Origin: Candidatus Woesearchaeota archaeon
GTDB taxonomy: Archaea; Nanobdellota; Nanobdellia; Pacearchaeales; CAZSMI01
NCBI GenBank assembly: GCA_964607815.1
Contig: CAZSMI010000002.1
Location: forward strand, 1-34,005
DNA length: 34,005 bases
Reading direction: 5' to 3'
Shown here: positions 15,591 through 32,399 of the stretch, piece after piece
Layout: every line of letters starts with the position of its first letter
How positions within the stretch are numbered: the first letter of the stretch is position 1
Program-made: the position numbers and the translations under genes
Notes under the pieces: model-generated
The model's input: only the letters and a program-made list of their open reading frames with translations
Databases searched by the model: none
What the model was told of the DNA's origin: nothing

Positions 15591-16457
15591 ATGTTAATAG
15601 CAGATTTTTTGCTTGTAATAATAACCATAGTGTGGCTCATAGCAGCTAGTGTGCAAGATATCAGGAAAAGAGAGGTTGCTAACTGGCTTTGTTTTTCTTT
15701 GCTTTCTATAGCCCTAGCTGTAAGAGCCATAGCAGCAATAATTTTTTCTTCTCCTTTTTATTTTTTGTATGGTCTTGCTGGCTTTGCAGCTTTTTTTTGT
15801 CTTGCTAATTTGCTTTATTATGGAAGACTATTTGCAGGAGGAGACGCAAAGCTTTTCATGGCTTTAGGAGCAGCACTGGCAACATATCCTGTTTTTGCTA
15901 AAACAGGAGGAATAATAATAACACCTTTTTTGCTTATTTTTCTGGTTAATTCCTTGTTTATAGGCTCGGTTTATGGAATCTTTTTTAGTATATTTCTTGC
16001 AACAAAAAACAGAAAAAAATTTGCTAAAGAAATAAAGGGGAAATGGAAAATTGGGTACTCCTGGTTTTTTGTCCTTTTTGTATTATTAGTTTTTTTTGCG
16101 TTCACAAGCAAAATTTTCTTTCTTAATTTTCTTGCATTTCTTTTCCTTGTTCCATATCTTTTTTTATTTGTAAAGGCAGTTGAAAATTCATGTATGGTAA
16201 GAATGTTGAGACCAGAACAAATAACAGAAGGAGACTGGCTTGTCAATACGCTAAGAATAAGAACCAAGAAAAAAATCATTACAATAAAACCAACTTGGGA
16301 AGGGCTGAGCAAGAAAGAAATTGCCTTGATAAAAAAAGCAAAAATAAAAAAAATAAAAATAAAATATGGTGTGCCTTTTGTTCCTGTTTTTCTTTTTGCC
16401 CTAATTGCTAGCTTCTTTAGCAATATACTTTTTTGGCTTGTTAGTTTGATCGCTTAA
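15591..16457 (+). CDS. A24-family prepilin/preflagellin peptidase (PibD/FlaK-like)
   Basis: 288-aa polytopic membrane protein with the two aspartyl motifs of the family: AASVQDIRKREVANWL and LFAGGDAKLFMALGA. Confidence 0.7.
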   Translation: MLIADFLLVIITIVWLIAASVQDIRKREVANWLCFSLLSIALAVRAIAAIIFSSPFYFLYGLAGFAAFFCLANLLYYGRLFAGGDAKLFMALGAALATYPVFAKTGGIIITPFLLIFLVNSLFIGSVYGIFFSIFLATKNRKKFAKEIKGKWKIGYSWFFVLFVLLVFFAFTSKIFFLNFLAFLFLVPYLFLFVKAVENSCMVRMLRPEQITEGDWLVNTLRIRTKKKIITIKPTWEGLSKKEIALIKKAKIKKIKIKYGVPFVPVFLFALIASFFSNILFWLVSLIA

Positions 16458-19881: not shown

Positions 19882-20856
19882 TTATTCCTTGTCTGACAAG
19901 CCTTCTTTTGTGATAAAGAAAAGTGCTTCTGATTCTGGCAAGTTAGGAGAGTCAATAAGTTTTGCAACTCTTGAGCCTTTTTTTCCTCTTCTCAAATACA
20001 GTCTGAATGTGCTGGCGTGTCCCAAAATATGGCCTCCAATTGCAGTAGTAGGATCACCAAACATTATAGCAGGATTTGCCATTACTTGATTTGTTACATA
20101 AACTGCTAGATTATATTTTTCAGCAAGTCTTCCAAGATCATGTAAATGTCTGTTTAACCTTTGCTGCCTGTCTGCTAGCATTCCTCTTCCTGTAAATTCT
20201 GCGCGAAAATGTGCAATCAAAGAATCAACAACAACAAGTTTGATTGGTTCTCCTTTTGTAATAAGGTCAGCAACTTTTTCTACAAGCAACATTTGATGAT
20301 CACTATTAAAAGCTCTAGCTATCATTATGTTTTTCAAAACTTTTTCTGGATTTGCTCCTATACCTTCTGCTATTTGCTTGATTCTTTCTGGCCTGAATGT
20401 GCCTTCTGTGTCTATGAAAACTGCCTTGCCAGCTGCACCACCTTTTTCTTTTGGTAACTGAACATTTACTGCCAAGGCAAAACCAAGCTGGCTTTTTCCA
20501 GAACCATAAGCACCAAAAGTTTCTGTTATTGCTTTTGTTTCTATTCCCTTTCCACCAAGAAGATTATCAAAATTTTTGCTTCCTGTTGTAATTGTCAAAA
20601 CTTCTCCTCTCTTTTTAAGATATTGAGAAGCATCCTGAAAACCTAAATCAAGCATTTTTCTTGCTGCTTGTATAGCTTTCCTTGCTACTGCCTCGCTTAT
20701 ACCACTTGTATTACTTAACTCAGCAGGAGCCAAGACAGCTATGCTCATCAAATCACTTATGCCAGCTGATTCTAGTTTAGCAGCCACAGTAGGGCCAATA
20801 CCTGGCAAATCAGTAATCTTGTATTCTTTCTTTCTTTCCTTTTCTTTTTCTACCAT
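19882..20856 (-). CDS. radA: DNA repair and recombination protein RadA
   Basis: 324 aa. N-terminal HhH region [20 protein letters not shown], Walker [11 protein letters not shown], Walker B LVVVDSL, and the C-terminal GGHILGHAS motif. Confidence 0.92.
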
Positions 20857-20877
20857 AATGAAAAGAAGTTTTGAGCA

Positions 20878-20886
20878 TTTATAAAG
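20878..20886 (-). promoter_or_regulatory. TATA-like box for radA
   Basis: The minus strand reads CTTTATAAA 22-30 nt upstream of ATG 20856. Confidence 0.4.
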
Positions 20887-20956
20887 ATTATTCTATTTTG
20901 TAATATGGTTTTGTTTATTCTCTAAAAAACATCCAATTTACTCTCACTTATAAATT

Positions 20957-21361
20957 TTATTTTACAAAAAGAAGGATAGAGAAAATTATAATCAATAGCA
21001 AAAGAAAATAAAATAAGATTGTTTCTTTGAAGCTTCCTGTTTTGAGCTTTCCTTTTATTTTCCATTGCAAAGGCCAAAAAGGCATTATTCCTTGAGGAGT
21101 AAAGCTGTCTGCAAGCAAATGCAAGGAGTAGCCTATCAAAAAAGGCAATGCTATATTCCAACTTGCAAGTGTCAAGAAAAAAGTCAAAAGAAGACAGAAA
21201 GTAAAGCTGTGTAAAAATTTTCTATGAAAAAAATGCAAATCGAGGTCTGGCAAGAGAGTTGCTATAAAAAGAATAAAAAGAAAAATTATTTTCTCATGCA
21301 AATATGGAAAAATTATTATGGCAAGTAAAATGGCAAGAGCAAGATGTGTCCTAAATAACAT
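20957..21361 (-). CDS. Membrane-bound metal-dependent hydrolase-like protein (YdjM/DUF457-type)
   Basis: 134 aa, about four TM helices. MLFRTHLALAIL, LLPDLD and HRKFLHS resemble the DUF457 family pattern. Confidence 0.5.
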   Translation of the reverse strand: MLFRTHLALAILLAIIIFPYLHEKIIFLFILFIATLLPDLDLHFFHRKFLHSFTFCLLLTFFLTLASWNIALPFLIGYSLHLLADSFTPQGIMPFWPLQWKIKGKLKTGSFKETILFYFLLLLIIIFSILLFVK

Positions 21362-21365
21362 TTGA

Positions 21366-22319
21366 CTATTGTTTTTGCATTTCTTCTATTAGTTTTTCTG
21401 GGTTCACTTTACTGATAGCGGAGACAATGAATTCTTTTCTTTCAAATAGCTTATTTTGCCTACATCTTCCAGAAAAGAAATATTCTTTTCCAAGTAAGTT
21501 TTCCTTTTTTTCGAGAAAAAAATCTGGATTTTTCAATTTCTCACTTTGGCCTTCACATTGCAAAATTTTGCTTGCTATATCACCAAAACATACTGCCCTT
21601 ATATTAGCCGAGCCATCATCAAGTGTCAAGGAAAATAAAAACCTGTGATTTGGAATAACATTTCCGTGTTTTACACAAAAAAACTTTTCTCCTTGCTTGT
21701 CTATTTTTATTCCACATTCAGGACAGACAGGAAAAAATCTTGGCTCAAATGTCTGCACAACAGATGCCCTAATTTTCATCCTCTCGTTAACATTCAATTC
21801 AGAAATTTTTTTTGTTGGTAAAATTTCTTCTTCTACTACATTTTCAATAACAGATTTGCTTAACTTGAGCTCTGATAAGCTTCCTAAATGTAATTCATTT
21901 CCCCTAACAGAAGCATTTTTTATTTCCACTACACTGCCTAATTTTATTTTTCCTTCTTCTATCAACTTTATGTGATTTGTGTCCCATAACACAACTCTTG
22001 TGCTGGCAGTATCATCTGCTAACAAGAAACTTGCTACCTTGCTTTCATTCTTTGCAGTTTTGTATTGCCTTATAGGATATAATTGCAAAATCTTGCCCTC
22101 AACTCCTGCTTTTCTCATCCCGCCAAGCAACTCAGCTATCTTAACTTTTTGCTTGTCAAAATCTATTCCAAGTTCGGCTGCTACTACTTGCGCAGCTCCT
22201 TCCTCACTTATTAAGCCAGATAATTTGGCTCTTTTTGCTTCTATTTTTCTCTTGACCTCAGCAAGAGAAAGGCCAGATCTTTGGGTTATTCTTTCAACAA
22301 GTCGTTCAAATTTATCCAT
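21366..22319 (-). CDS. rpa: Replication protein A-like ssDNA-binding protein (OB folds + Zn ribbon)
   Basis: 317 aa. N-terminal helical RITQRSGLSLAEVKRKIEAKRAKLSGLISEEGAAQVVAAELGI, OB-fold-like repeats, and the Zn ribbon FFPVCPECGIKIDKQGEKFFCVKHG, as in euryarchaeal-type RPA. Confidence 0.65.
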   Translation of the reverse strand: MDKFERLVERITQRSGLSLAEVKRKIEAKRAKLSGLISEEGAAQVVAAELGIDFDKQKVKIAELLGGMRKAGVEGKILQLYPIRQYKTAKNESKVASFLLADDTASTRVVLWDTNHIKLIEEGKIKLGSVVEIKNASVRGNELHLGSLSELKLSKSVIENVVEEEILPTKKISELNVNERMKIRASVVQTFEPRFFPVCPECGIKIDKQGEKFFCVKHGNVIPNHRFLFSLTLDDGSANIRAVCFGDIASKILQCEGQSEKLKNPDFFLEKKENLLGKEYFFSGRCRQNKLFERKEFIVSAISKVNPEKLIEEMQKQ

Positions 22320-22379: not shown

Positions 22380-23138
22380 CTATTTTTCAAGTGCAAATTT
22401 TATTTCTATGGGAGCAAATTTCTCTTTCTCGTCAGTAAAAAAGAAGCTTTTTTTTGTTTTGATATCAAAAAACAAATAACCGTTTTTGGTAACAACAACA
22501 GAATAATTTTCATTTTCCATGCATTTTTCAAGTTCTGTCTCTGCCTTGCATCCCTTGGCTTTTTCATACAAAAAGATAAAGTCTTCTGGTTTCAATTCGA
22601 GTTCGAGCTCAAAAGAAAAATCCGGTCTGTATCTTGCAGAGTGGGGAAAATCTTTTCCTACTGGAGATAATATAACTTCTTTCTCTTCTGCTTTTGCAAC
22701 AAGATTATCGCCCTCAATTAAAAATTCATAATCTGTAACAAAATCTTTATCTGGATAGCTTTCTAAAAATTTAATAAAATTTTCGTTAATGTGAAAAAGA
22801 AATTTTTCTTCAAGTTCCTCTTTTGATAATATACATTCATCTTTTATAACCATATAACCAGAAAAAACTTGGCAATTGGCAAAATCTTGATTTTCTGCAA
22901 TTTCTTGAAAAGCTTGCTGGCTTGTAAGTTTTGTGCTCTGCTTAGCATAAAAAACAAACCGATCAGTTTCATCATAAAGTTCAATTAGTCCAGAAGGTGT
23001 TGTTATTAGAAGTGAAACTTTGTTCTCTACCGTAATAAAGGTGAATAAGGCATAGCCAACCAAAATAACGGTCGCTATTGCTATGAAAAATGCAAAAGCC
23101 TGGGCTTTTTTGTTTTTTCTCTGCATTGGTATTAACAT
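22380..23138 (-). CDS. Pilin-like protein (class III signal-like N-terminus), function unknown
   Basis: 252 aa. The N-terminus MQRKNKKAQAFAFFIAIATVILVGYALF is followed by a soluble domain with no recognised motif. Confidence 0.55.
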   Translation of the reverse strand: MLIPMQRKNKKAQAFAFFIAIATVILVGYALFTFITVENKVSLLITTPSGLIELYDETDRFVFYAKQSTKLTSQQAFQEIAENQDFANCQVFSGYMVIKDECILSKEELEEKFLFHINENFIKFLESYPDKDFVTDYEFLIEGDNLVAKAEEKEVILSPVGKDFPHSARYRPDFSFELELELKPEDFIFLYEKAKGCKAETELEKCMENENYSVVVTKNGYLFFDIKTKKSFFFTDEKEKFAPIEIKFALEK

Positions 23139-23161
23139 TTTTTTAATTTTTTCAGTTTATT

Positions 23162-23716
23162 TTATTTTAATTTTTTCGAGCATTCGCTGTCCAAAAGCAG
23201 TCTTGTTTTGATTATTCTTGCTCCTAGAACAGGGACTATCACTTCAGCATAATTCTTGAAAACGAGACCTGTGTTGCCTACTATAAGGTTGCCAGATTCT
23301 TTTATATCCGGATCATAGTAAGGATTTTTATAATCTCTATCTCGCATATAGTAAGGAATCCTAAATTGATAACAGTTTCCATAAATACCAAAAATTTTTT
23401 CTGTTTCTTCTTTTAGTATTGGTTCATAAGATCTATCTAAACCATACAAAAGAATAAGATCTGAAAAAGTTATCTCTTGTTCTTTTCCATCAATCATGAC
23501 AGTTACAGAACTTTGTAAATAAGTTTCAAGAACCTCAAGACTAGGAATTTTATCATACAAAATTTTTGCTTGTTTTGCAGAAGGCCTTATTTTTATAGCC
23601 TGAGTTGCAATAAAAAAAATTATCAATATAAGGCCTACAACTATTGTTGCTGCAATGATTGTAATTGTTGTCCCAATTGCCCTTTTATCTTTTATTTTTT
23701 TAAACATTTTTTTCAA
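23162..23716 (-). CDS. Pilin-like protein (class III signal-like N-terminus)
   Basis: 184 aa. N-terminus KIKDKRAIGTTITIIAATIVVGLILIIFF. The start could be 23716 or 23707. Confidence 0.55.
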   Translation of the reverse strand: MKKMFKKIKDKRAIGTTITIIAATIVVGLILIIFFIATQAIKIRPSAKQAKILYDKIPSLEVLETYLQSSVTVMIDGKEQEITFSDLILLYGLDRSYEPILKEETEKIFGIYGNCYQFRIPYYMRDRDYKNPYYDPDIKESGNLIVGNTGLVFKNYAEVIVPVLGARIIKTRLLLDSECSKKLK

Positions 23717-24236
23717 ATTTTCTTATTCCAATTAGCAATTCAAGCATGTTTTTTCCAGCAAGAAGATATTTTTGTTCCAGGCACTCAAGAGGATATTTCA
23801 TTTTTTTCTCTAGCTTGCAATAAACTTCAAAATCTTTGTTGCCAAGGACATCACTCTCTGCAACTTTTGTTTTATCTTCTTCAAAAAGAGTTGCACTAAT
23901 GTAATACTCTTTCTTATCAATTCTCAGATTGCATTTTTCAATATCTAATTCATGCAAAACACCATTTTTTATCAAGCATTCACTTACTTGTTTTGCAAGT
24001 AACTGTGCTTCTGCTTTTCTTATATCACACTCTTTTGAGTAAAAGCTTGCAACAGTTCCTGCTATAACCAAAACTATGATTATAAGGAGAAAAAAACGAG
24101 CAAGCATCAAGGGAATCTCTTTTCCTATCAATTGTGCTTTTTTATTTTTTAAATTATCTAAATATCGATAAAACGACATAACCCTCTTTTTTTCATTATC
24201 AATTTTGTTTCCTATTTTCATTTTTATTTTTATCAA
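23700..24236 (-). CDS. Pilin-like protein (class III signal-like N-terminus)
   Basis: 178-aa ORF. The motif LKNKKAQLIGKEIPLMLARFFLLIIIVLVIAG lies 30 residues in, so the true start is probably the internal ATG at 24179 (MSFYRYLDNLKNKKAQ...). Confidence 0.5.
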   Translation of the reverse strand: MIKIKMKIGNKIDNEKKRVMSFYRYLDNLKNKKAQLIGKEIPLMLARFFLLIIIVLVIAGTVASFYSKECDIRKAEAQLLAKQVSECLIKNGVLHELDIEKCNLRIDKKEYYISATLFEEDKTKVAESDVLGNKDFEVYCKLEKKMKYPLECLEQKYLLAGKNMLELLIGIRKFEKNV

Positions 24237-24583
24237 CTTATTTTTATCAAAACACGAGCATCTTTTTTTTCTATTTCAATATGATAAGGAGAAAAAAAAT
24301 CATAAGAATATCCTGTTTTTTCTTTCTCACTTACTTTTACATTGTTTCCTTCTATAACAAGAGAAAAATTTCCCGTGTAGAGGGTTATTTCTGTTTTTGG
24401 TCTTGCAGCATCTATCAACAAAGCAGCTTGTTTTGCAAGCACTTGCTGTTCAAGTAATTTTCCAGAAGCTGCTGTTCTTATGAAAAGGAGCAATGACGCA
24501 AAAACTGCCAAGGCTATAACAAGAAAAATTATAAAGCTAAGCAAAGATTCTTGTGCCCTCTTCCCTTTTTCTCCTCTTTTCAT
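24233..24583 (-). CDS. Pilin-like protein (class III signal-like N-terminus)
   Basis: N-terminus MKRGEKGKRAQESLLSFIIFLVIALAVFASLLLF. The ORF-track start at 24592 is a TTG. ATG 24583 sits 21-28 nt downstream of a TATA-like box and is preferred. Confidence 0.6.
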   Translation of the reverse strand: MKRGEKGKRAQESLLSFIIFLVIALAVFASLLLFIRTAASGKLLEQQVLAKQAALLIDAARPKTEITLYTGNFSLVIEGNNVKVSEKEKTGYSYDFFSPYHIEIEKKDARVLIKIS

Positions 24584-24603
24584 TCTAAACAAAAGAAAAA
24601 GGA

Positions 24604-24611
24604 ATTAATAA
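24604..24611 (-). promoter_or_regulatory. TATA-like box (GATTTATTAATTCC) for the 116-aa pilin-like gene
   Basis: The minus strand reads TTTATTAA 21-28 nt upstream of ATG 24583. The longer GATTTATTAATTCC context overlaps the stop codon of the upstream gene. Confidence 0.4.
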
Positions 24612-24614
24612 ATC

Positions 24615-25415
24615 TTATGGGATGGTTTGAATATCTGTACAACCGATAGAATAAATTTGTTCTGGTTTAAATTCTATTATGTTGAGCAAAGCAGAAAACT
24701 CCGGTATTTCATAAAGCCCTTTTTCTCTAAAATAACCGTCAAGAGCTTCTTCTGATAAAGCACCAGCAACAGAAGCCAGAATTATCGGAATGCCTCCAGT
24801 ACATGCTGCCACTACCCCTACAGCAACTCCTGCAGCAGTCATTTTAAATAGACGATTGTGGATAAAGGTAGGTTCTCCTACTAATACTATAACAGCGTAG
24901 TTTTTGTCTGTATCAATAATTATTTTTTCTTTTGCTTCATTACTAAAGTACTCCATAAAAGTTATATCCTTGCCAGCAATTTTTGTTTTATTCAAAAAAT
25001 CAAACAAATCAACCTTTTTCCTTTTTGCTTTTTCTTCAAAATATATAGTTGAACAAATCATACAATGATTTTTTGTGAAAAATTCTCCTGGAAAAAAATC
25101 TAGCTTTCCCTCCCCTAACATCCACCAGCAATCATACATAGCATTTGCAATTTTTTTCTTTATTATTTCCTCGTCTTCATCATAAATCACAATCGATTCT
25201 GTTTTGCATTTCAAGGAAACTGTTTTTCTTAAAATGGTACCTAGAGGTCCTTTGATAGACCTTGACAAAACACTTTGATGACATGTTTCTTTGTCAATAA
25301 CCTCTGTCCATCCAATCTGGTTTATAAAAAGTATTATTATCCCAAAACAGATTACTGCAACAATAATGCCAATAAGCATTTTTGCTTCTATTCCTTTTTT
25401 GTCTTTTAGTTTCAT
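24615..25415 (-). CDS. Pilin-like membrane protein (class III signal-like N-terminus plus a C-proximal TM segment)
   Basis: 266 aa. N-terminus MKLKDKKGIEAKMLIGIIVAVICFGIIILF, with a second hydrophobic stretch AAGVAVGVVAACTGGIPIILASVAGAL. Confidence 0.55.
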   Translation of the reverse strand: MKLKDKKGIEAKMLIGIIVAVICFGIIILFINQIGWTEVIDKETCHQSVLSRSIKGPLGTILRKTVSLKCKTESIVIYDEDEEIIKKKIANAMYDCWWMLGEGKLDFFPGEFFTKNHCMICSTIYFEEKAKRKKVDLFDFLNKTKIAGKDITFMEYFSNEAKEKIIIDTDKNYAVIVLVGEPTFIHNRLFKMTAAGVAVGVVAACTGGIPIILASVAGALSEEALDGYFREKGLYEIPEFSALLNIIEFKPEQIYSIGCTDIQTIP

Positions 25416-25463
25416 TTTTTATTTGGTAAGAGGACTAACTAATAAGTTCTTTATCTTCTTTAT

Positions 25464-25500
25464 CTTATTTTTTATCAAGGCGTTTGAATTAATAAATTTA
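25464..25500 (-). promoter_or_regulatory. Conserved 37-nt promoter block, copy A (paralogue at 27702-27738)
   Basis: The minus strand reads TAAATTTATTAATTCAAACGCCTTGATAAAAAATAAG. By hand alignment, 30 of 37 positions match copy B. The TATA-like TTTATTAA lies 74-81 nt upstream of ATG 25415. Confidence 0.45.
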
Positions 25501-25556
25501 TCTTTTGGTAAATTAAAAGGATTTTATGATCTTTTATTCATCTTTATTTGTATGCT

Positions 25557-25601
25557 ATCCTTCCTCTTATCCTCTTCTTATCCTCTTCTTATCCTCTTCT
25601 T
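25557..25601. repeat. Tandem 11-bp repeat: atcctcttctt x3 perfect plus one degenerate 12-nt copy
   Basis: Perfect units at 25569-25579, 25580-25590 and 25591-25601, preceded by atccttcctctt (25557-25568). Intergenic, between the 42-aa ORF stop and promoter block A. Confidence 0.8.
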
Positions 25602-25606
25602 ATTGT

Positions 25607-25735
25607 TTACACTCCAAATTTTTTCAAAAGTCCTCTTACAGCAAAAAAAATTGCTACTGCAAAAATTATCCACAACAGGATTTTGATTAAGGTTGTTGGC
25701 ATAATTGCCTTCTTTCTTTTTTTTATTTTGAACAT
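25607..25735 (-). CDS. Mini pilin-like peptide (42 aa)
   Basis: Absent from the ORF track: MFKIKKRKKAIMPTTLIKILLWIIFAVAIFFAVRGLLKKFGV. Same basic + A/G + hydrophobic helix layout. Starts 9 nt after the stop of the 344-aa gene. Confidence 0.4.
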   Translation of the reverse strand: MFKIKKRKKAIMPTTLIKILLWIIFAVAIFFAVRGLLKKFGV

Positions 25736-25743
25736 TTTAACTT

Positions 25744-26778
25744 CTAAGTTTCTTGAAAAAACCCTTCATAAATTTTTTTGAACAAGGCATTTGCCTGTAT
25801 GTGTGGTGTATAAACATATAAAGCGCCAGTTGCTTTATTAGCGGGCCTTATCTCCTGATTATCAACCTTTATCGTATCCCCCACTACCCATTCATCAAAT
25901 CTATGTCTAAAAGTTTCTGTTGCACAGATTATTTGTTTTTCAAAACCACCATATCTCTCTTTTCTTTCTTCCTGTTCTTCTTTACTTACTTCAGATATAC
26001 CACAACCAGTAGCAATCTTTACTCTTTCATTAAATTCTTCTCTTGCTTTTTCATTTAGAACTATCAGGCCTTGCTCTTTTTGTATTGTTGCAATTATTAC
26101 TTTTGGATTTATTTCTTTTTCTTTACAATTCTCATAAATTATTTGTGAAGCAGATTTTTCTCCTACTTTGTAGTCTGCCAGCAAAGAATCTTTTTGTTCT
26201 AAGAAATCTTGGATTTCCTTTTTGTTCATGGAAAGCTCTTGAAATTCTTCATCGCTTATTATATTACTTATAGAAAAAACAAATTTTTCTTTTTCTGTTA
26301 TGTTATAAAATGCTGGCTCACTTGTTATAAAAAATTCACTAACTGTTATTTTCTTGAGAAAAAGCTGTTTATCTTGGACAATCGGCTTGTCTATGACTCT
26401 ACAATAACCAGCTTTTATGCAGTCTATTCTTATTCTATGCCTGCATATACAAACGCAATTTTTTCCCTTACAGATTGTAGGAACTTGGTCAGCATTGAAA
26501 TGTCTATTTCCATCTATATCAAAAGCGACAACATACCATCCTTTAGGAGCAAGTAGGAACAAAGGGCTGCTTCCTTCTTTTTTTGCCTCTTCTAAAGCGC
26601 GGATAATAGCATCTATCTGTCCTGATGCTTGTAATTTTTCCTGACCATAAAAAAACATTCCTGCAATAGAAACAAAAAAAAACAGCAAAACACCTGCAAG
26701 TATCAAGCCTACAATCAAATTGAAAACAAATTTCAATAAAGTCATACCTCTTTTGTTTCTACTAATCATACTAAGCAT
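25744..26778 (-). CDS. Pilin-signal protein with Cys-rich middle region and C-terminal lysozyme-like/cell-wall-hydrolase-like module (tentative)
   Basis: 344 aa. N-terminus SRNKRGMTLLKFVFNLIVGLILAGVLLFFF, then a Cys cluster TICKGKNCVCICRHRIRIDCIKAGYC. The C-terminal ~170 aa contain EIQDFLEQKDSLLADY, INPKVIIATIQKEQGLI and ATGALYVYTPH. Confidence 0.6.
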   Translation of the reverse strand: MLSMISRNKRGMTLLKFVFNLIVGLILAGVLLFFFVSIAGMFFYGQEKLQASGQIDAIIRALEEAKKEGSSPLFLLAPKGWYVVAFDIDGNRHFNADQVPTICKGKNCVCICRHRIRIDCIKAGYCRVIDKPIVQDKQLFLKKITVSEFFITSEPAFYNITEKEKFVFSISNIISDEEFQELSMNKKEIQDFLEQKDSLLADYKVGEKSASQIIYENCKEKEINPKVIIATIQKEQGLIVLNEKAREEFNERVKIATGCGISEVSKEEQEERKERYGGFEKQIICATETFRHRFDEWVVGDTIKVDNQEIRPANKATGALYVYTPHIQANALFKKIYEGFFQET

Positions 26779-26798
26779 GCTAAAAGAAATAATTTGAA

Positions 26799-26808
26799 TT
26801 ATTTAAAG
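26799..26808 (-). promoter_or_regulatory. TATA-like box for the 344-aa gene
   Basis: The minus strand reads CTTTAAATAA 21-30 nt upstream of ATG 26778. Confidence 0.4.
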
Positions 26809-26826
26809 TTTACTTGTTACTTATGT

Positions 26827-27174
26827 CTAGGTTTTGGGGCAGACATCTGTACAATCTATATCACAATCAAATAACGCTGTTCTGTTATCTAGTTCATCAC
26901 AGGTAAGCTCCTCTGGTTTTTTTGGGTCTGTTGGATCCAAGCCCCTTACTGTATGTTTTGTACAACAAAATTCAAATGTTGAAGCGGTTGTGCAGTGTAT
27001 TTTACACTGACTTACAATAGCATCAACATTTGTTGTTGTAAAAAAACCAGTTACTTTGCTCCACATTTGTTGCCAGCCCATAGCAAAACCTGCCACAAGT
27101 ATTACTAACACAATTACTGCAAGTATCACCAAAACAATTGTTGTTACACTTAATCCTTGTCCTTTTTTGTCCAT
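26827..27174 (-). CDS. Small Cys-rich pilin candidate (class III signal)
   Basis: 115 aa. MDKKGQGLSVTTIVLVILAVIVLVILVAGF is the closest match here to the archaeal K-G-Q prepilin motif. 8 Cys in the 70-aa C-terminal part. GAGG lies about 5-10 nt upstream of the ATG. Confidence 0.65.
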   Translation of the reverse strand: MDKKGQGLSVTTIVLVILAVIVLVILVAGFAMGWQQMWSKVTGFFTTTNVDAIVSQCKIHCTTASTFEFCCTKHTVRGLDPTDPKKPEELTCDELDNRTALFDCDIDCTDVCPKT

Positions 27175-27214
27175 TTTTCCTCTTTTTTCTGCTTTTACTA
27201 AGTCTTAGTTATTT

Positions 27215-27379
27215 TTAAAGTTTTCCATACAAAATTTTTATCAGAGGAATTACAGCAAGCCCTTCAATTTGTGGCTTTATGTAGTTGATCCATATTAGAA
27301 AAAGACTTCCAACAACAAGCGCAATAACTATTACTATGATAATAGCTCTTATCAAGGTATTTATTGTTAATTCTGCCAT
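27215..27379 (-). CDS. Small single-TM protein (54 aa)
   Basis: Absent from the ORF track: MAELTINTLIRAIIIVIVIALVVGSLFLIWINYIKPQIEGLAVIPLIKILYGKL. Lies directly upstream of the Cys-rich pilin. No clear basic-G/A motif. Confidence 0.35.
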   Translation of the reverse strand: MAELTINTLIRAIIIVIVIALVVGSLFLIWINYIKPQIEGLAVIPLIKILYGKL

Positions 27380-27455
27380 TTTATTTCTATATTTGTAAGC
27401 AGTAGCTCTTTAATAATTTCTATATTTTATGATCCTTTATCTAATTTTATTGATT

Positions 27456-27614
27456 TTAAATTTTATATTTGAACAAGTTGAGGAATCTTTCTATAAGGCT
27501 TTCTCCTTTCCCTCTCAGTATCATGATGGCTAGTAAAATTATAACAAGAACTGCAAGTGCAATTATCCATTTTGCTAGTGTATTTAGAGCAATTCCCCTC
27601 TTATCTTTTTTCAT
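27456..27614 (-). CDS. Mini pilin-like peptide (52 aa)
   Basis: Absent from the ORF track: MKKDKRGIALNTLAKWIIALAVLVIILLAIMILRGKGESLIERFLNLFKYKI. Carries a class III signal-like KDKRG plus a hydrophobic helix. Confidence 0.45.
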   Translation of the reverse strand: MKKDKRGIALNTLAKWIIALAVLVIILLAIMILRGKGESLIERFLNLFKYKI

Positions 27615-27670
27615 TTTTATTTTCATTTCTTTTGTAAGTTGATAGGCAATAAATTCCTGGTATTAATATA

Positions 27671-27692
27671 TTTTATCTCTGTTTTATCTCTG
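27671..27692. repeat. Tandem 11-bp repeat (ttttatctctg x2) in the leader downstream of promoter block B
   Basis: Exact copies at 27671-27681 and 27682-27692. The minus strand reads CAGAGATAAAA twice. Confidence 0.75.
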
Positions 27693-27701
27693 TTCCTTCT
27701 A

Positions 27702-27738
27702 CTTTATTTTTACCAAAGCGTCTGGATTAATAAACTTA
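27702..27738 (-). promoter_or_regulatory. Conserved 37-nt promoter block, copy B
   Basis: The minus strand reads TAAGTTTATTAATCCAGACGCTTTGGTAAAAATAAAG. It starts 2 nt after the stop of the 709-aa gene and matches copy A at 30 of 37 positions. TTTATTAA lies 113-120 nt upstream of ATG 27614. Confidence 0.45.
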
Positions 27739-27739
27739 A

Positions 27740-29869
27740 CTAGCCTGCGCCTATGCCACCAACTGCTATGTTTGCAAGCAAGCTTAGGGCAAGGGTTGCA
27801 AGCAAAGCCACTATAAAATAAAGGAAAATCCCTCCTCTCAAATTTCCTGAGATTTCTGATTTTTCGCTTAACTTGTCAACACCGCTTTCTACTATTACTA
27901 AGGTGCCTGTCAGAATAAAAACAATTTCTATCAAATAAATTCCTATTACTATCTGTAAAAAATAAGGGGGTATCATTTCTGTAATGTTGAACATTTCTGT
28001 TAGTGTTCCTATCGTGCCAAACATACCTACTTCTGTTTCTGCCCCTAGTTCAGGCAACATTGTTTGCAACTTTCCAAATATGCTTGTTATCATTGTTGAT
28101 AAGCCAACAACTATTCCTGTCAAAACAGGAGCAAGGAACGTCATATTACTTTTCATATCGCTTATTATATCTGCAAGCAAATCTCTAAGCCTTTCATTAA
28201 TTTTTCCTATGTTCTTTACATATTGCGAGATGCTCATCAGTGCTCTTGCAGCAACTTGCAATCCTCTCTTGACACTTTCAACAAGAATTTGCATGCTTGT
28301 TTTTACTAGTGTTGAAGGATAAAAAATAATTGCTCCCCTTCTTTTGTTGAATATTGCTTGTTCAACAGACATGCCTGCTTGTTGTATGTTGCTGTTAACT
28401 ATTTTGAAAAAACCAGCTGTTGCTGTTCCTCTTGTTGACTCAGCAACTCTTGCAAAAGCAATTTCTGCTGGCATTCCATCTCCTAAACGATTACCAAGTT
28501 GGAATATACTAGAAGAAAATTCTCTTTCAAAATCTTTTGTTTCTCTTCTTGTTTTTATAAGCTCTTTGGTTTTGAGCTGATATGATATGGAAAAAAACAA
28601 GGCTATACTTAAAGGTATGAGCAAACTCAGAAGTAATGCTAAAAGACCAAAAGGTCCTTTGCCATCACGAAAATCAAATGCTTGCATTTCTGCCCCAAAC
28701 AAAGAAAAACTAAAATCATTTTGCAAGCCGAGCATGGCAGGCAGTTGAGTTTGAAAAAGTAAGGGCAAAAGCCCTATAATAAAAATAGGCAAAGAAAATG
28801 CCAAAGCAATATAAAAGGGCTTTCTGCTGCTATATTTCACGTAATCTGGATTTTGTTCTAGTAACTCAGTCTCACCATAACCTCCCGGTCTTTTACTTAA
28901 TACTTGAGAAGTTAAATAAAAAACAAAAAAAGGAACTATCATATTAAAGAATATAGCAACATGAAACCAGTTTATTGCTCCTCCCAGTAAGGCAGAAGCT
29001 AAAGGTAGTATTGCAATTGCTAGAGTAGGAAGAACTATTCCCAACATGTAAAGATTTGTTAATGGTGCACGAACATCATGAACATAATGCAACATTTTGT
29101 CATGTACACCATCCAAAATAATCTCAAGTGATTTTTCAAGAACTTCTATTCTTCTTGCCTCACTTGGCTCATACAAACTGCTTTCTATAAGATGAAAAGA
29201 TTCTATAAATTCTGGACTATATCCTCTCCAATTTTCTAAATAAGAATCTAGACTTTCTTTTATTGTGCTATATTTGCCTATTTCAACATCATAAAAAATT
29301 TTTTTGAAATCTAGGGCAAGAGGCGCTTGTAAATGCATGCTTGCAAATTCTATTGCCTTTTCCAAGTTGCTCGTATGTCTCATATAAACAACCACATATA
29401 AAATGCATGGAACCATTTGAGAACTTGCTTTTAGACGCCATGACTGTGCAAGTCTTCCGGGCATGTTATTTGTGTAGTAAAACAAGAAGAGAGAAAAGAA
29501 GAACAACAAAAATAATAGAATAAAAGGAAAAATTCCTGTGATGAGGAAAACAGCAAATGGAATAAGAATGGAAACAACTAGAGACGACAGCAAGATAAGA
29601 ATAGAAAATGCTATTGTGTCTGAAGCACTCAACTCTAGATGTGCTGTTTTTAGCTGGCTACTAATTCTTTTTTCATCTTCTTTTTTCAGCCTTACTTTTA
29701 TTTTCTTGCCAATACCCTTACATAATCTTTCGTATCTTGTGAAAGAGGGCATTGTTTCTTCCCTGAAGCGTTGGTATTCCTTGCTAAAGCCTGTAGGAGT
29801 CACACTAGTTGTCTCTCTTTCTAGCTTTGCCTCAAATTTTTTGAGAATCTCTTCAACATCTCTTACCAT
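27740..29869 (-). CDS. Polytopic membrane protein, probable pilus/archaellum assembly platform (FlaJ/TadC/PilC-type, T2SS F-like)
   Basis: 709 aa with many hydrophobic helices in two clusters separated by soluble segments. Lies 36 nt downstream of the secretion ATPase, the usual archaeal arrangement. Family assigned by context, not by a recognised motif. Confidence 0.5.
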   Translation of the reverse strand: MVRDVEEILKKFEAKLERETTSVTPTGFSKEYQRFREETMPSFTRYERLCKGIGKKIKVRLKKEDEKRISSQLKTAHLELSASDTIAFSILILLSSLVVSILIPFAVFLITGIFPFILLFLLFFFSLFLFYYTNNMPGRLAQSWRLKASSQMVPCILYVVVYMRHTSNLEKAIEFASMHLQAPLALDFKKIFYDVEIGKYSTIKESLDSYLENWRGYSPEFIESFHLIESSLYEPSEARRIEVLEKSLEIILDGVHDKMLHYVHDVRAPLTNLYMLGIVLPTLAIAILPLASALLGGAINWFHVAIFFNMIVPFFVFYLTSQVLSKRPGGYGETELLEQNPDYVKYSSRKPFYIALAFSLPIFIIGLLPLLFQTQLPAMLGLQNDFSFSLFGAEMQAFDFRDGKGPFGLLALLLSLLIPLSIALFFSISYQLKTKELIKTRRETKDFEREFSSSIFQLGNRLGDGMPAEIAFARVAESTRGTATAGFFKIVNSNIQQAGMSVEQAIFNKRRGAIIFYPSTLVKTSMQILVESVKRGLQVAARALMSISQYVKNIGKINERLRDLLADIISDMKSNMTFLAPVLTGIVVGLSTMITSIFGKLQTMLPELGAETEVGMFGTIGTLTEMFNITEMIPPYFLQIVIGIYLIEIVFILTGTLVIVESGVDKLSEKSEISGNLRGGIFLYFIVALLATLALSLLANIAVGGIGAG

Positions 29870-29905
29870 ATTGATACCTCTTTTTCTTGTTATGCTTCTT
29901 GCTAG

Positions 29906-32197
29906 TTAAGTTTTTGCTCTCTTTACTTCTTCTTTGAGCCAGTCTTTCCATTCTCTCAGCACTCTTTCCCCTTCTGGCAGCCCAATTTCTTTACTTACCA
30001 TGTCAGATATTATATGAAACATGTTGTTGCTTTTTACTGTAAAAGGAGCTTCTAACAAAGAAGGCATTTTTGTTTTTCCTGCTACCTTTACAATTTCTTC
30101 TTTTATTTTTGCTCTCAACAAGATATTGTCCCAGACAGCATCCCAGTTGCCAGCCCATCCTTTTACATTAGCGGCAACTGCCTTGAGGGTTTCGCTTTCT
30201 CCATTAACTAAATCAGGTGTTGCTTCTAGCTCATCTTTTTGCACATTATATTTCAAGAGGTCAACAAAACCTTTTTCATCAAGAGGATCTTCTCTCCAAT
30301 GCTTTCTTACTTCTGTAATTTGCATAAGCCTTTTCCAGCTATGCAATCCATCTGGACTTTTGATAGGGTTTGTTACTGCTATAATATCAGTAGCTTTGAA
30401 ACTTGTGATTGGTACTTGTAAATCATTTACTACTCTATCAAAAACAGCATAAGGGCTTGCACCATGTATAGTACCGGCAACAACATTTGCTAAAGCTCCA
30501 ATTCTCATGGCCTCGTAAAGAGCTTTTGCTTCTAAAGAACGAATTTCTCCAATAATAAGACTACTGTCACCTAATCTCAAACTAACTCTGATAGCCTCGT
30601 CTGCTGGCACTTCTGTTGTTGTTTTCAGCAAGGCAGCTCTTGCTTTCATCCTCAATATATCATAATTTAATTTTCTCAAAGTATCTACTGGCAGCTCAAG
30701 AACATCTTCCAAAACAATAATGCGATATTTTGGCATTATTTCTAAAAGTAAAGATCCTAACAAAGAAGTTTTTCCAGATGAGCGAGTACCTGCCACGAGA
30801 AGGGTTCTTGCTCCTTCTATCAAAAAGCTAAATAAACCAGCAGCCAAAGGGTTCAACATTTTATTTTGTGCAAATAAGGCCAATGTCCAGGGCATTTCCC
30901 TGTGTCTTCTGAAAGCATAAGCAAGTCCATAAGGACTTAGTGGTTGCTGGATTATTGCTACTCTTGCCCTGATATTTTTGATGAGCAGGTCAGTATCAAG
31001 AACAGGATTTGCTTCATCTAATGGTCTGCCAGACAGCATTCTGAACTTTGCAGCCCATGAGTCAGCATCCTCAGTAGAAGGTACAATATTTGTAAAACAC
31101 TCATCATAACCCTGATGTCTTATGAAAATTGGTACTTGACTTACAGGAGAATTAACAACAATATCTTGCAGCCTTTCATCTTGCAATAGCACTTCTATCA
31201 GGCCAAAACCAATTGTATGCCTTACGAGAATTGTTGCAAGTTTATTGAGTTTTCTATAACTAATTTTTATTTTTTTGCTGTTTGCAAGTTCTTGTAACAA
31301 GTCTCTCGCAATATTAAAAAAAACCTGTCTTGTTCTTGCCGGGTCAGTAAATTCTTCTGCTCTTGGTCTATGTTCTAGTAAAACATTTCTTGCAAGATCC
31401 AGTAAAGAGTAATATTCTTCTTCTAGAGCATACTCTGGAGGCATCAGATGATAAAGGAACTTTGTTCTTCCTGGCAACTTCAGGATTGTAACATCACTTA
31501 TGTCTTGTTCCTCCCCTATAACATATCTGTCTATTATTTCTGCTTCTGATGGAATAGAAGATGCTAGCCTAGTAAAAGTAATATTTGGCAAAACATCTGG
31601 ACGAAAAATTCTTGCATAAATTTCTCTACTGCCTATTTTGTGTGCTTTTATGTAAGGCTGGGCTTGTTTTATCAACCCTGTTTTTTCTAGCAGCTCAACA
31701 ATCTTGCCAAGAAGTCTCAGGTAGATACCTTCACATGTGTTACATTGTTCTGGCAACTTCCTTGCATTAATTTTTTCTTCTCTCAACAAGCGTTTAGACT
31801 CAACATAACAGCCTATTGGGTCTTGTTTTAACAAAGTAAGGACAAGATATCTCATCGCATTATATCTTCCTGCCAAACATTTTTTACATTCAAAAGGTGT
31901 AAGTTTCTGCATGGACAAAACCTTTTCTTGTTTTACAAGATAATTGTAAAGTTGCGCAATTTCTACAAGCAATGCTGCTTGAGAAAAATCATAGCTATAG
32001 TTTCTTTGCTGAACAAAAACTATCCTGCTAACATCTGGCTGCTCTACAAGAGAATCTATTGTGCGAGACATGCACAAAGCAGAGTCTGCAAGACTTGGTA
32101 TACTTGTTGCTCCTAAATAGTTTATGAATATGACATTTTGTCCAGCTTCTCTTGTTACTTCATAACTATAAAGAGCAGTACCTTTTTTGAACAACAT
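29906..32197 (-). CDS. Type II/IV secretion-family ATPase (FlaI/PilB/VirB11-like) with extended N-terminus
   Basis: 763 aa. Walker A LVAGTRSSGKTSLLGSLL (around residue 470), Asp box/Walker B IIVLEDVLELP and SLIIGEIRSLEA, His box AGTIHG. The N-terminal extension carries CKKC...CNTC. Confidence 0.8.
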   Translation of the reverse strand: MLFKKGTALYSYEVTREAGQNVIFINYLGATSIPSLADSALCMSRTIDSLVEQPDVSRIVFVQQRNYSYDFSQAALLVEIAQLYNYLVKQEKVLSMQKLTPFECKKCLAGRYNAMRYLVLTLLKQDPIGCYVESKRLLREEKINARKLPEQCNTCEGIYLRLLGKIVELLEKTGLIKQAQPYIKAHKIGSREIYARIFRPDVLPNITFTRLASSIPSEAEIIDRYVIGEEQDISDVTILKLPGRTKFLYHLMPPEYALEEEYYSLLDLARNVLLEHRPRAEEFTDPARTRQVFFNIARDLLQELANSKKIKISYRKLNKLATILVRHTIGFGLIEVLLQDERLQDIVVNSPVSQVPIFIRHQGYDECFTNIVPSTEDADSWAAKFRMLSGRPLDEANPVLDTDLLIKNIRARVAIIQQPLSPYGLAYAFRRHREMPWTLALFAQNKMLNPLAAGLFSFLIEGARTLLVAGTRSSGKTSLLGSLLLEIMPKYRIIVLEDVLELPVDTLRKLNYDILRMKARAALLKTTTEVPADEAIRVSLRLGDSSLIIGEIRSLEAKALYEAMRIGALANVVAGTIHGASPYAVFDRVVNDLQVPITSFKATDIIAVTNPIKSPDGLHSWKRLMQITEVRKHWREDPLDEKGFVDLLKYNVQKDELEATPDLVNGESETLKAVAANVKGWAGNWDAVWDNILLRAKIKEEIVKVAGKTKMPSLLEAPFTVKSNNMFHIISDMVSKEIGLPEGERVLREWKDWLKEEVKRAKT

Positions 32198-32204
32198 TTT
32201 TTCT

Positions 32205-32399
32205 TTATTTGCTTTCTTTTTTTATAGTAAGGTAGATTATCTCTATTATGATTGTATGTACAAGAAAGAAAAACACAAACCATGCTTTTTCTTTTCTCCT
32301 TGCACTTCTCCATAATACCAATCCTGTTAAGGTTAACTGGATTACCGAAAGAATAACAAGGCATACAATTTGTACTGTAGTAAGTTCTACGAGCACCAT
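32205..32399 (-). CDS. Small two-TM membrane protein, possible first gene of the pilus operon
   Basis: 64 aa: MVLVELTTVQIVCLVILSVIQLTLTGLVLWRSARRKEKAWFVFFFLVHTIIIEIIYLTIKKESK. AGGTG lies about 13 nt upstream of the ATG. The stop is 7 nt before the ATPase ATG. Confidence 0.4.
   Translation of the reverse strand: MVLVELTTVQIVCLVILSVIQLTLTGLVLWRSARRKEKAWFVFFFLVHTIIIEIIYLTIKKESK

Follow-up and report, generated by a model that had tools for sequence, protein, structure and literature searches.

The 34,005-nucleotide (nt) stretch of contig CAZSMI010000002.1 that was analysed here (the window), from a Candidatus Woesearchaeota archaeon, contains thirteen open reading frames (ORFs) at positions 22380–32399, all on the minus strand, with neighbours overlapping by at most 17 nt and lying at most 191 nt apart. 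Together they probably encode an archaeal type IV filament machine, pilus-like and divergent. The four component classes of such a system all occur here and are conserved as a set. The machine is recognisable as such, and its platform protein, the extension of its ATPase, its subunit families and an enzymatic subunit are undescribed; our searches of the literature found no description of the locus, of its leader motif or of an archaeal fusion of a pilin with a muralytic domain. An initial annotation had described a single minus-strand array of genes for 64-, 763- and 709-amino acid (aa) proteins followed by small ORFs, with which the coordinates and strand agree, but the small ORFs after the 709-aa gene, given there as eleven, number ten. 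The array is listed here from its high-coordinate end, with the ten small genes numbered as slots 1 to 10.

32205–32399, minus strand: 64-aa DUF5652 protein with two transmembrane segments (Pfam DUF5652, E 2.5e-11), 7 nt upstream of the ATPase gene
29906–32197, minus strand: 763-aa assembly ATPase of the T2SSE family, hexameric type
27740–29869, minus strand: 709-aa polytopic protein, concluded to be the platform (diverged double T2SSF)
27456–27626, minus strand: slot 1, 56-aa prepilin-like protein, leader KKDKRG, then IALNTLAKWII
27215–27379, minus strand: slot 2, 54-aa single-helix membrane protein without leader, N-terminus MAELTINTLIRAIIIV
26827–27174, minus strand: slot 3, 115-aa prepilin-like protein, leader MDKKG, then QGLSV
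25744–26778, minus strand: slot 4, 344-aa modular pilin-like protein, leader SRNKRG, then MTLL
25607–25735, minus strand: slot 5, 42-aa prepilin-like, helix-only protein, leader KKRKKA, then IMPTTLIKILLWII
24615–25415, minus strand: slot 6, 266-aa prepilin-like protein, leader KDKKG, then IEAKM
24233–24592, minus strand: slot 7, 119-aa prepilin-like protein, leader GKRA, then QESLL
23700–24236, minus strand: slot 8, 178-aa prepilin-like protein, leader KNKKA, then QLIGKE
23162–23716, minus strand: slot 9, 184-aa prepilin-like protein, leader KDKRA, then IGTTITII
22380–23138, minus strand: slot 10, 252-aa prepilin-like protein and last gene of the array, leader KNKKA, then QAFAFF

The window was compared with related loci in a set of 83, consisting of the window itself, two loci referred to as L001 and L003, and 80 more, with ORFs in the related loci being called mechanically. 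The 763-aa protein scores 42 bits with the Pfam T2SSE family (PF00437), for which the cut-off is 24.9 (E 6e-11), and its core, at residues ~301–704 (nt 30086–31297), is of the T2SSE/FlaI/CpaF type, with NCBIfam matches to TadA (E 1e-33) and FlaI (E 1.8e-30). Comparison of the ATPase with the PDB gave A. fulgidus GspE (afGspE, 2oap; E 2e-23), CpaF (E 4e-19) and FlaI (E 7e-12), so that the FlaI/PilB-family assignment of the initial annotation holds for both models and structures. The catalytic motifs, with Walker A, Walker B and the His box all intact, can be read in the translation (Walker A GTRSSGKTS with K476, IIVLED, GEIRS with E551, and TIHG), and the blocks containing them are 84–94% conserved and among the best conserved in 58 full-length orthologues. 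Membership of the archaellum motors was rejected (FlaI model 106 bits against a cut-off of 550, and no match to FlaH, FlaF or FlaG among the ORFs of the locus or window), as was membership of the Tad systems (TadA model 117 bits against an equivalog cut-off of 373) and of the bindosome (BasE model 52 bits, E 3.6e-14, against a cut-off of 1000). Since all equivalog cut-offs were missed by a wide margin, the protein can clearly be assigned to the T2SSE superfamily and stands outside the archaellum, Tad and bindosome subfamilies.

The first 300 residues of the ATPase (nt 31298–32197) form an N-terminal extension specific to its own lineage and family, which is conserved among the 58 full-length orthologues and gave no match in Pfam or the PDB, nor any detectable relation to the N-terminus of the Haloterrigena ATPase discussed below. 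A zinc ribbon in this region, for which the window protein has a CxxC...CxxC pattern, was rejected because the cysteines are not kept in the 58 orthologues. The orthologues are 751–800 aa long, and calling the ATPase oversized, as had been done from the window alone, was an overstatement, as a length of 751–782 aa is normal for its own family and haloarchaeal PilB/PilC pairs reach 989/679 and 833/701 aa.

We concluded that the 709-aa protein is a diverged double-T2SSF (PilC/FlaJ/TadBC-like) platform. The platform-family match expected of it in the initial annotation fails when sought directly with Pfam T2SSF, and four links hold: matches of PF00482 among its orthologues, structural matches to EpsF/OutF, profile-profile alignment, and pairing with the ATPase in DPANN archaea and on a haloarchaeal plasmid. 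PF00482 was matched by three of 68 orthologues (best E 1e-4), and these three are ~60% identical to the window protein. An AlphaFold2 model based on 68 sequences (predicted local distance difference test, pLDDT, 85; predicted template modelling score, pTM, 0.82) is all-helical, with two predicted cytoplasmic helical bundles (~residues 136–265 and 440–575) between membrane helices, and the sole high-probability Foldseek matches of this model were the cytoplasmic domains of EpsF/OutF (probability 0.93–0.97, template modelling (TM) score 0.65–0.70, E >1), which superpose partially, with a root mean square deviation of 3.2–3.6 Å over ~120 columns.

For profile-profile alignment with hhalign, a diverse T2SSF profile was made by combining ten proteins annotated as TadB/TadC with four halves of archaeal PilC, and the Haloterrigena homologue was added to the query. 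The second half of the platform aligned with 92.9% probability (E 3.8e-7) and the first half with 77.3% (E 2e-5), compared with E 0.03–0.05 for the reversed-profile control and E 6e-8 and 4e-13 for positive controls against a Tad-only profile, all of these E-values being those of single comparisons. The platform and ATPase genes are 36 nt apart in the window, and the ATPase is found within 10 kb of the platform in 63/83 loci, mostly less than 500 nt away.

Nine of the ten small ORFs start with a basic leader and a G or A, followed by a hydrophobic helix; all nine N-terminal strings quoted in the initial annotation are present, out of ten ORFs rather than eleven. Under a strict rule, which required [KR][GA] and then a hydrophobic stretch of 20 residues, seven overlap-filtered ORFs were positive inside 22380–27700, against 1/36 elsewhere in the window. 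One of these seven is the leaderless 54-aa ORF, which is positive via an internal RA; the 56- and 42-aa ORFs are missing from the positives only through the overlap filter, and the 178-aa ORF has a charged +5 region. Conservation of the motif was then assessed for eight slots, with 8 to 66 orthologues each from a total of more than 80 related genomes, which were collected by BLAST alone, without requiring the motif. In these orthologues, position −1 was G or A in 96–100%, position −2 was K or R in ~97%, position −3 was K in 84–100% and position −4 was mostly N, with Gln being the commonest +1 residue overall. The class III signal layout proposed for the window is hence strongly conserved in orthologues found by overall similarity alone, and the recurrence of N-K-[KR]-[GA] just ahead of the helix, in eight families of unrelated proteins, looks like a shared processing site.

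The enzyme presumed to process these leaders is encoded 6 kb from the array, on the other strand, and one further ORF with a similar N-terminus lies close to it:

15591–16457, plus strand: 288-aa A24 aspartyl peptidase of the prepilin/preflagellin type (Pfam Peptidase_A24, 52 bits against a cut-off of 26.5, E 7.9e-14)
13160–14305, minus strand: 381-aa ORF with a class III-like N-terminus, MKMLKMLKMSKLSRKA / QGGLVVLIIAAIAVF (KLSRKA before QGGLVVLIIAAIAVF), 1.3 kb from the peptidase gene

The initial annotation was right in placing an A24 peptidase at this position: in addition to the Pfam match, the protein matches NCBIfam FlaK (E 4.6e-10; 39.5 bits against an equivalog cut-off of 330), and both catalytic aspartates are in place (D23, and D85 in the GxGD motif G83-G84-D85). 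The 381-aa ORF, which has no Pfam match, is the sole ORF outside the array in the window that is positive for the strict motif, and may be a further (tenth) substrate.

The N-termini could also be read as ordinary uncleaved signal anchors (type II), with the basic residues following from the positive-inside rule and the ATPase and polytopic protein serving unrelated transport. The lack of a pilin-model match among the small proteins would suit such a reading, as would the 54-aa array member without any leader, but we find it barely credible, as it leaves unexplained the near-invariant G/A, the K at −3 and the N at −4 across eight unrelated families, their exclusive clustering beside a T2SSE/T2SSF pair and the presence of an A24 peptidase. 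A shared processing site is favoured because the positive-inside rule does not produce a near-invariant motif in eight unrelated families.

The platform family has ~4000 homologues, 58–67% identical, from metagenome-assembled genomes labelled Pacearchaeota, Woesearchaeota or Nanoarchaeota; these lack precomputed Pfam domains, and JGI annotates a few of them as 'TadB'. Among GTDB species representatives, at least 577 genomes carry the family, and the gene cluster, which is complete though highly divergent, seems to be common to most DPANN archaea of the Pacearchaeota/Woesearchaeota type and to have been missed by standard annotation. Pilus-type machinery is therefore present in at least 577 species-level genomes though annotation does not see it, because the platform and all pilin-like proteins fall below model thresholds.

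Synteny in related genomes was proposed in the initial annotation as a check, and in the Pacearchaeota-type loci L001 and L003 each of the ten small genes has an orthologue in the corresponding position and order, at 28–55% identity. Essentially every locus with enough sequence has 5–10 strict-motif-positive ORFs on one flank of the platform gene, versus 0–2 on the opposite flank, and the array is either co-directional with the platform gene, as in the window, or divergent from it. L001 and L003 have an opposite-strand gene between platform and array (L001 12153–14189, minus strand, 678 aa; L003 12185–12940, minus strand, 251 aa), encoding proteins with a Sec-like N-terminus, which is not found in the window. 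The DUF5652 protein was rejected as a conserved part of the machine, as BLAST, which is weak for a protein as short as 64 aa, showed no counterpart beside the ATPase in the other 82 loci, and its membership in the machine is doubtful.

The largest of the prepilin-like proteins, that of slot 4, is modular. Residues ~1–165 (nt 26284–26778) form an N-module with the leader, the helix and conserved cysteines, and homologues of this module occur as a 167-aa protein in L001 (without the C-terminal domain) and as a 359-aa protein in L003, which ends in a Pfam SLT domain (E 2e-22). The C-terminal domain of the window protein (residues 176–344, nt 25747–26253; 169 residues) belongs to a family without a Pfam model: the slot 4 protein of the window gave no Pfam match, including PF01832 (Glucosaminidase) and PF01464 (SLT), and a word-indexed homologue search with the 344-aa protein returned only itself. 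An exhaustive HMMER search retrieved 991 representative clusters of this domain family, most of them secreted proteins of bacteria that join the domain to SH3, LysM, PcsB coiled-coil or endolysin wall-binding modules. One relative, P0122, is a true slot 4 orthologue with the same pilin-like N-module.

The C-terminal domain contains an invariant glutamate (E235, domain E60) in the motif INPKV..IQKEQGL (INPKV..LQKEQGL in the family), which is kept in 33 and in 63 relatives, and the sole PDB profile match of the domain, a weak one (E 0.15), aligns this motif on the catalytic-Glu motif of MltC. The AlphaFold2 model of the domain has a pLDDT of 96.1, and Foldseek placed the glycoside hydrolase family 73 (GH73) autolysins AtlE and LytB on top (probability 1.0, best E 8.6e-3, TM 0.6), followed by SagB and the C. 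perfringens autolysin Acp (0.7–1.0 being the probability range of these four) and then by MltF, Tse3, SltB1 and g-type lysozyme. The domain shares 12–16% sequence identity with its structural matches, at TM 0.5–0.6. On these grounds the C-terminus of slot 4 is a predicted peptidoglycan glycosidase of the lysozyme superfamily, belonging to an undescribed family, and we infer that the slot 4 protein is a modular pilin, a pilin-like carrier presenting this lysozyme-like enzyme. Compared with GH73 enzymes and family-1 lytic transglycosylases (S. aureus AtlE, S. pneumoniae LytB, E. coli MltC, P. aeruginosa MltF), the domain is alike in its lysozyme-like helical fold and its invariant Glu at a helix end, but differs in having no Pfam Glucosaminidase/SLT match, in its own LYxYTPH motif and in forming a family of ~1000 representative clusters.

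Slot 4 orthologues carry a C-terminal extension of at least 100 aa in ~16/68 cases. Twenty extended proteins were scanned for domains (18 from the loci, the window protein and P0122), which yielded SLT in four, Glucosaminidase (GH73) in one and 3D in one, with the new type in the window protein and P0122. Muralytic modules on other slots were looked for among 89 large motif-positive ORFs, and slot 4 proteins were the only ones found to carry them; false positives of the motif rule among these 89 included MacB/FtsX proteins and helicases. A related side observation is a 1587-aa ORF in another locus (L067 4121–8884, plus strand), with a class III-like N-terminus, an S8 subtilase domain, an I9 inhibitor domain and FG-GAP repeats, which may be a protease-bearing substrate of the same system.

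Archaea are not known to have murein, and a bacterial wall is thus the likely substrate of the lysozyme-like domain. Bacterial trans-envelope machines are commonly encoded together with dedicated lytic transglycosylases of the VirB1/FlgJ type, and the presence of a lysozyme-like domain inside the assembly locus could similarly mean that the module acts on the archaeon's own envelope, making room for the machine as VirB1, FlgJ and BfpH do in bacteria. This we consider highly improbable, given that archaea are not known to make murein, that the module is missing from about three quarters of orthologous loci, which would be odd for an assembly requirement, and that it is fused to a secreted pilin-like carrier instead of being a separate periplasmic enzyme. 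Peptidoglycan-cutting enzymes are described as 'normally absent in Archaea' in a published study (PMC8204110).

The presence of a lysozyme-like domain on the 344-aa subunit, replaced in orthologues by SLT, GH73 or 3D domains, gives a better foundation to the suggestion of the initial annotation that the locus encodes a host-interaction machine, which is how we interpret it. The machine probably displays a swappable wall-cutting module against bacterial hosts, and a lysozyme-like domain on a pilin-like subunit suggests that these archaea attach to and cut into bacterial walls. In such a machine, the nine precursors would insert into the membrane, where the A24 peptidase would remove the basic leader of 4–14 residues after the G/A; the ATPase would dock on the platform via the latter's cytoplasmic domains and extract the mature subunits from the membrane, and these would stack via their N-terminal helices into a surface filament. 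The shaft may consist of one or two of the small subunits (the 115-aa protein, or the helix-only 56/42-aa proteins), with the larger ones as minor or tip subunits, and the lytic module of slot 4 would act on the wall of a bacterial host or prey, so that the filament would both tether the cell and locally open the host wall. Filament formation, leader cleavage and lytic activity are all predicted here from sequence.

It is conceivable, and we put it forward as a tentative idea that is rather more likely to be wrong than right, that slot 4 is a tip-presented, interchangeable muralytic effector, with four unrelated folds (SLT, GH73, 3D and the new lysozyme-like family) on one pilin carrier, and that this would be the first archaeal type IV filament to breach bacterial walls. 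If true, the locus would encode an organelle for cross-domain attachment and penetration, and many Pacearchaeota and Woesearchaeota would be parasites or predators of bacteria rather than of archaea.

Several observations weigh against the reading of this locus as a filament machine. The 709-aa protein gave no T2SSF (PF00482) match in Pfam at E up to 10, no NCBIfam match, and no PDB match by phmmer or profile search. Its Foldseek matches are partial and have E >1, the poor E being due to the comparison of a 709-residue query with 110-residue targets. Comparison by hhalign of the DPANN platform family with one Halobaculum PilC or with a narrow haloarchaeal PilC profile was negative; these narrow-profile negatives are uninformative, since the two repeats of a genuine PilC were also undetected at the same diversity (E 0.15), and the test hence had no power. 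The ATPase is not always beside the platform (within 10 kb in the 63/83 loci mentioned above, with some contigs truncated), and none of the ten small ORFs matched the curated archaeal pilin or archaellin N-terminal models of Pfam and NCBIfam at E up to 0.1–1, which is the reason why these small proteins are unannotated. For slot 4, the best Foldseek E of 8.6e-3 is weak, and the lytic function is accessory and not core, as only ~16/68 orthologues are extended. Finally, sequence alone does not separate a filament from a short pseudopilus or surface complex.

In the latter alternative, the class III signal would install varied surface proteins, including a hydrolase, near the envelope, in a short pseudopilus or membrane-anchored complex comparable to the pseudopilus of the type II secretion system or the Sulfolobus bindosome. 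The nine substrates indeed have unrelated globular parts with no obvious abundant major pilin among them, and large enzymes, such as the 1587-aa S8 subtilase with FG-GAP repeats in L067, are found among the class III-motif ORFs of related loci. The ATPase also matches the bindosome BasE model (E 3.6e-14), but the 52 bits obtained are far below those for TadA (117) and FlaI (106), and below the model's own cut-off of 1000. Furthermore, very small subunits (42, 56 and 115 aa), which are typical of filament shafts, are conserved in the array, and no solute-binding domains were found in the Pfam and NCBIfam scans. We consider a pseudopilus or surface complex unlikely, if deserving of attention, and retain the filament machine as the preferred reading.

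Archaeal type IV pili and the general idea of DPANN attachment by pili are established. Archaeal type IV pili were surveyed by Makarova et al. 2016 (PMC4858521), including Epd/EppA of M. maripaludis, PilA/PilB/PilC of H. volcanii, and Aap and Ups of Sulfolobus, and in this census the cognate pilins of the nanoarchaeal ATPases could not be identified. The locus shares with these systems a VirB11/T2SSE-type ATPase encoded beside a TadC/FlaJ-type platform, pilin genes arrayed next to the motor genes, several class III-signal proteins with an A24 peptidase, and frequent Gln at +1. It differs in that the window platform does not reach the T2SSF thresholds of Pfam and NCBIfam, the ATPase is extended at its N-terminus by 300 aa without detectable relatives, the pilin-like proteins match no pilin model and share a tight N-K-[KR]-[GA] motif, and one subunit carries a muralytic enzyme. 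Frequent Gln at +1 is also a feature of EppA substrates.

The Tad/Flp pilus resembles the system in other respects: TadA is the best curated model for the ATPase, CpaF structures rank second in the PDB search, each platform half aligns to TadB/TadC, and there are very small, helix-only subunits. Unlike Tad systems, the window has its platform as a single fused double-domain protein, its ATPase scores 117 against the 373 bits required for TadA, and no TadZ, secretin or RcpC/CpaB-type gene or Flp G/XXXXEY motif is present.

The closest relatives outside DPANN are an ATPase-platform pair on plasmid pHTUR04 of Haloterrigena turkmenica (WP_012945992 / WP_012945991), with adjacent genes, an ATPase core that is 39% identical, and a platform annotated as 'secretion system protein', which aligns over 486 columns (hhalign 99.6%, E 3e-24) and likewise has no Pfam T2SSF match. 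The N-terminus of its ATPase is not detectably related to that in the window. The pair (L004 2855–14948) also differs from the window in having no class III array, its neighbours being genes for an AAA ATPase, a helicase of the DEAD/DEAH type, ParA and a DUF87 (HerA/VirB4-like) protein, which hints that this ATPase-platform clade may serve a different, possibly DNA-transfer, function in haloarchaea.

A link with DNA was also considered for the window itself, where, in the region 19882–22319 (minus strand), a gene for an RPA-like protein with an oligonucleotide-binding fold directly follows the array, with RadA after it. The same order is seen in L001 and L003, and in the window and L001 a small membrane-protein gene (YdjM in the latter) separates the two; RPA-like matches occur in 38/83 loci and RadA matches in 25/83, and a 'replication factor A' gene adjoins an archaeal PilB/PilC pair on a Salinibaculum plasmid. 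L089 442–1422 belongs to the same observation. These neighbours would fit a DNA- or nucleic-acid-uptake (competence-type) pilus, in which wall cutting reaches or releases host DNA for processing by the RPA-like protein and RadA, as would the proposed life of Pacearchaeota on scavenged nucleotides (PMC8204110). However, RPA and RadA are housekeeping genes whose adjacency may be gene order inherited among close relatives, about half of the loci show no RPA within 10 kb, and the locus showed neither a DNA-binding nor a ComEA/ComEC-like component. Uptake of nucleic acids is thus an improbable function, and the RPA adjacency could reflect either gene order passed on by descent or a functional connection with the handling of DNA.

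For a filament with a modular subunit there is a bacterial parallel in Streptococcus sanguinis, in which the modular pilins PilB (with a vWA module) and PilC (with a lectin module) were proposed to be located at the pilus tip (Raynaud et al. 2021, PMC8179133). As in slot 4, an N-terminal pilin carrier is kept and the C-terminal module varies between relatives; the system in the window differs in being archaeal and in having peptidoglycan glycosidases or lytic transglycosylases as modules instead of adhesins, and the main text of the S. sanguinis paper (PMC8179133) mentions neither peptidoglycan hydrolase modules nor archaea. Within the same archaeal lineages, large extracellular SLT proteins of Pacearchaeota and Woesearchaeota (fam00969, up to 3000 aa) were proposed to target bacterial walls (Castelle et al. 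2021, PMC8204110). These share with the slot 4 protein the lineages, the inferred target (bacterial murein) and the inferred bacterial hosts; they differ in that they were not linked to a pilus, whereas the lytic module found here is on a small class III-signal protein in an assembly locus.

The Pacearchaeota and Woesearchaeota are abundant, remain uncultured and have genomes of ~0.6–0.8 Mb. A groundwater study used pili to separate the candidate phyla radiation (CPR) from DPANN, taking type IV pilus components to be 'missing in DPANN genomes', and found Pacearchaeota to be enriched in the host-attached size fraction and unusually firmly attached (10.1101/2020.05.14.094862). The reading of the machine as serving attachment and wall opening fits both these host-attached Pacearchaeota (10.1101/2020.05.14.094862) and the extracellular SLT proteins (PMC8204110). 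The locus provides defined targets for proteomics and cryo-electron tomography, and N-K-[KR]-[GA] is a concrete leader motif for predicting the surface proteome. The muralytic modular subunit provides a testable molecular argument for some of these archaea exploiting bacteria, and its C-terminal domain represents an uncharacterised family, lysozyme-like and mostly bacterial, with ~1000 representative clusters.

The individual subunits differ in size and in the composition of their processing site. The mature part of slot 1 is ~45 aa long and essentially the helix alone, which makes it Flp-sized, and its 36 orthologues have G (33) or A (3) at −1 and K (34) at −3. Slot 2 starts straight with its hydrophobic helix (MAELTINTLI), without a basic leader or G/A site, and as its orthologue in L001 (14521–14721, 66 aa, MEITIDTIIKVILIL, MEITIDTII) is also leaderless, it looks like a conserved 'leaderless pilin-like' member of the array. 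The protein of slot 3 has a small, Cys-rich globular part and is a candidate major subunit; in 46 orthologues, −1 is G in 37 and A in 8, and +1 is Q in 24. The positional orthologues of slot 5 (45 aa in L001, 43 aa in L003) carry the same RKKA/NKKA motif. Between this gene and that of slot 6 lies the longest gap of the array, a 191-nt non-coding region (25416–25606) which may contain an internal promoter or terminator.

Slot 6 has G (53) or A (13) at −1 in 66 orthologues, and the window protein contains a glycine-zipper-like hydrophobic stretch (AAGVAVGVVAACTGGIPIILASVAGAL) near its C-terminus (residues ~190–225), which may form a second membrane-active segment; the Pfam Gly-zipper model was matched by three large slot 6 orthologues. 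The 53 orthologues of slot 7 have G (34) or A (18) at −1, and the 54 of slot 8 have K (48) at −3 and G (23) or A (21) at −1. The real start of slot 8 is probably M20 (nt 24179), which would give a 159-aa protein with a 14-residue leader.

The rest of the window, with a G+C content of ~32%, contains archaeal housekeeping genes (SRP54, FtsY, eIF2-alpha, S15, RadA, RPA-like and tRNA-Gln). A 408-aa ORF without a family match (9940–11166, minus strand) has a 4-nt overlap with a 389-aa ORF (11163–12332, minus strand), which encodes a LAGLIDADG_3 domain. At the contig end, an IS605-type OrfB/TnpB gene (67–1221, minus strand) encodes OrfB_IS605, Cas12f1-like TNB and helix-turn-helix domains, and is preceded by a 138-aa ORF located upstream at 1218–1634.

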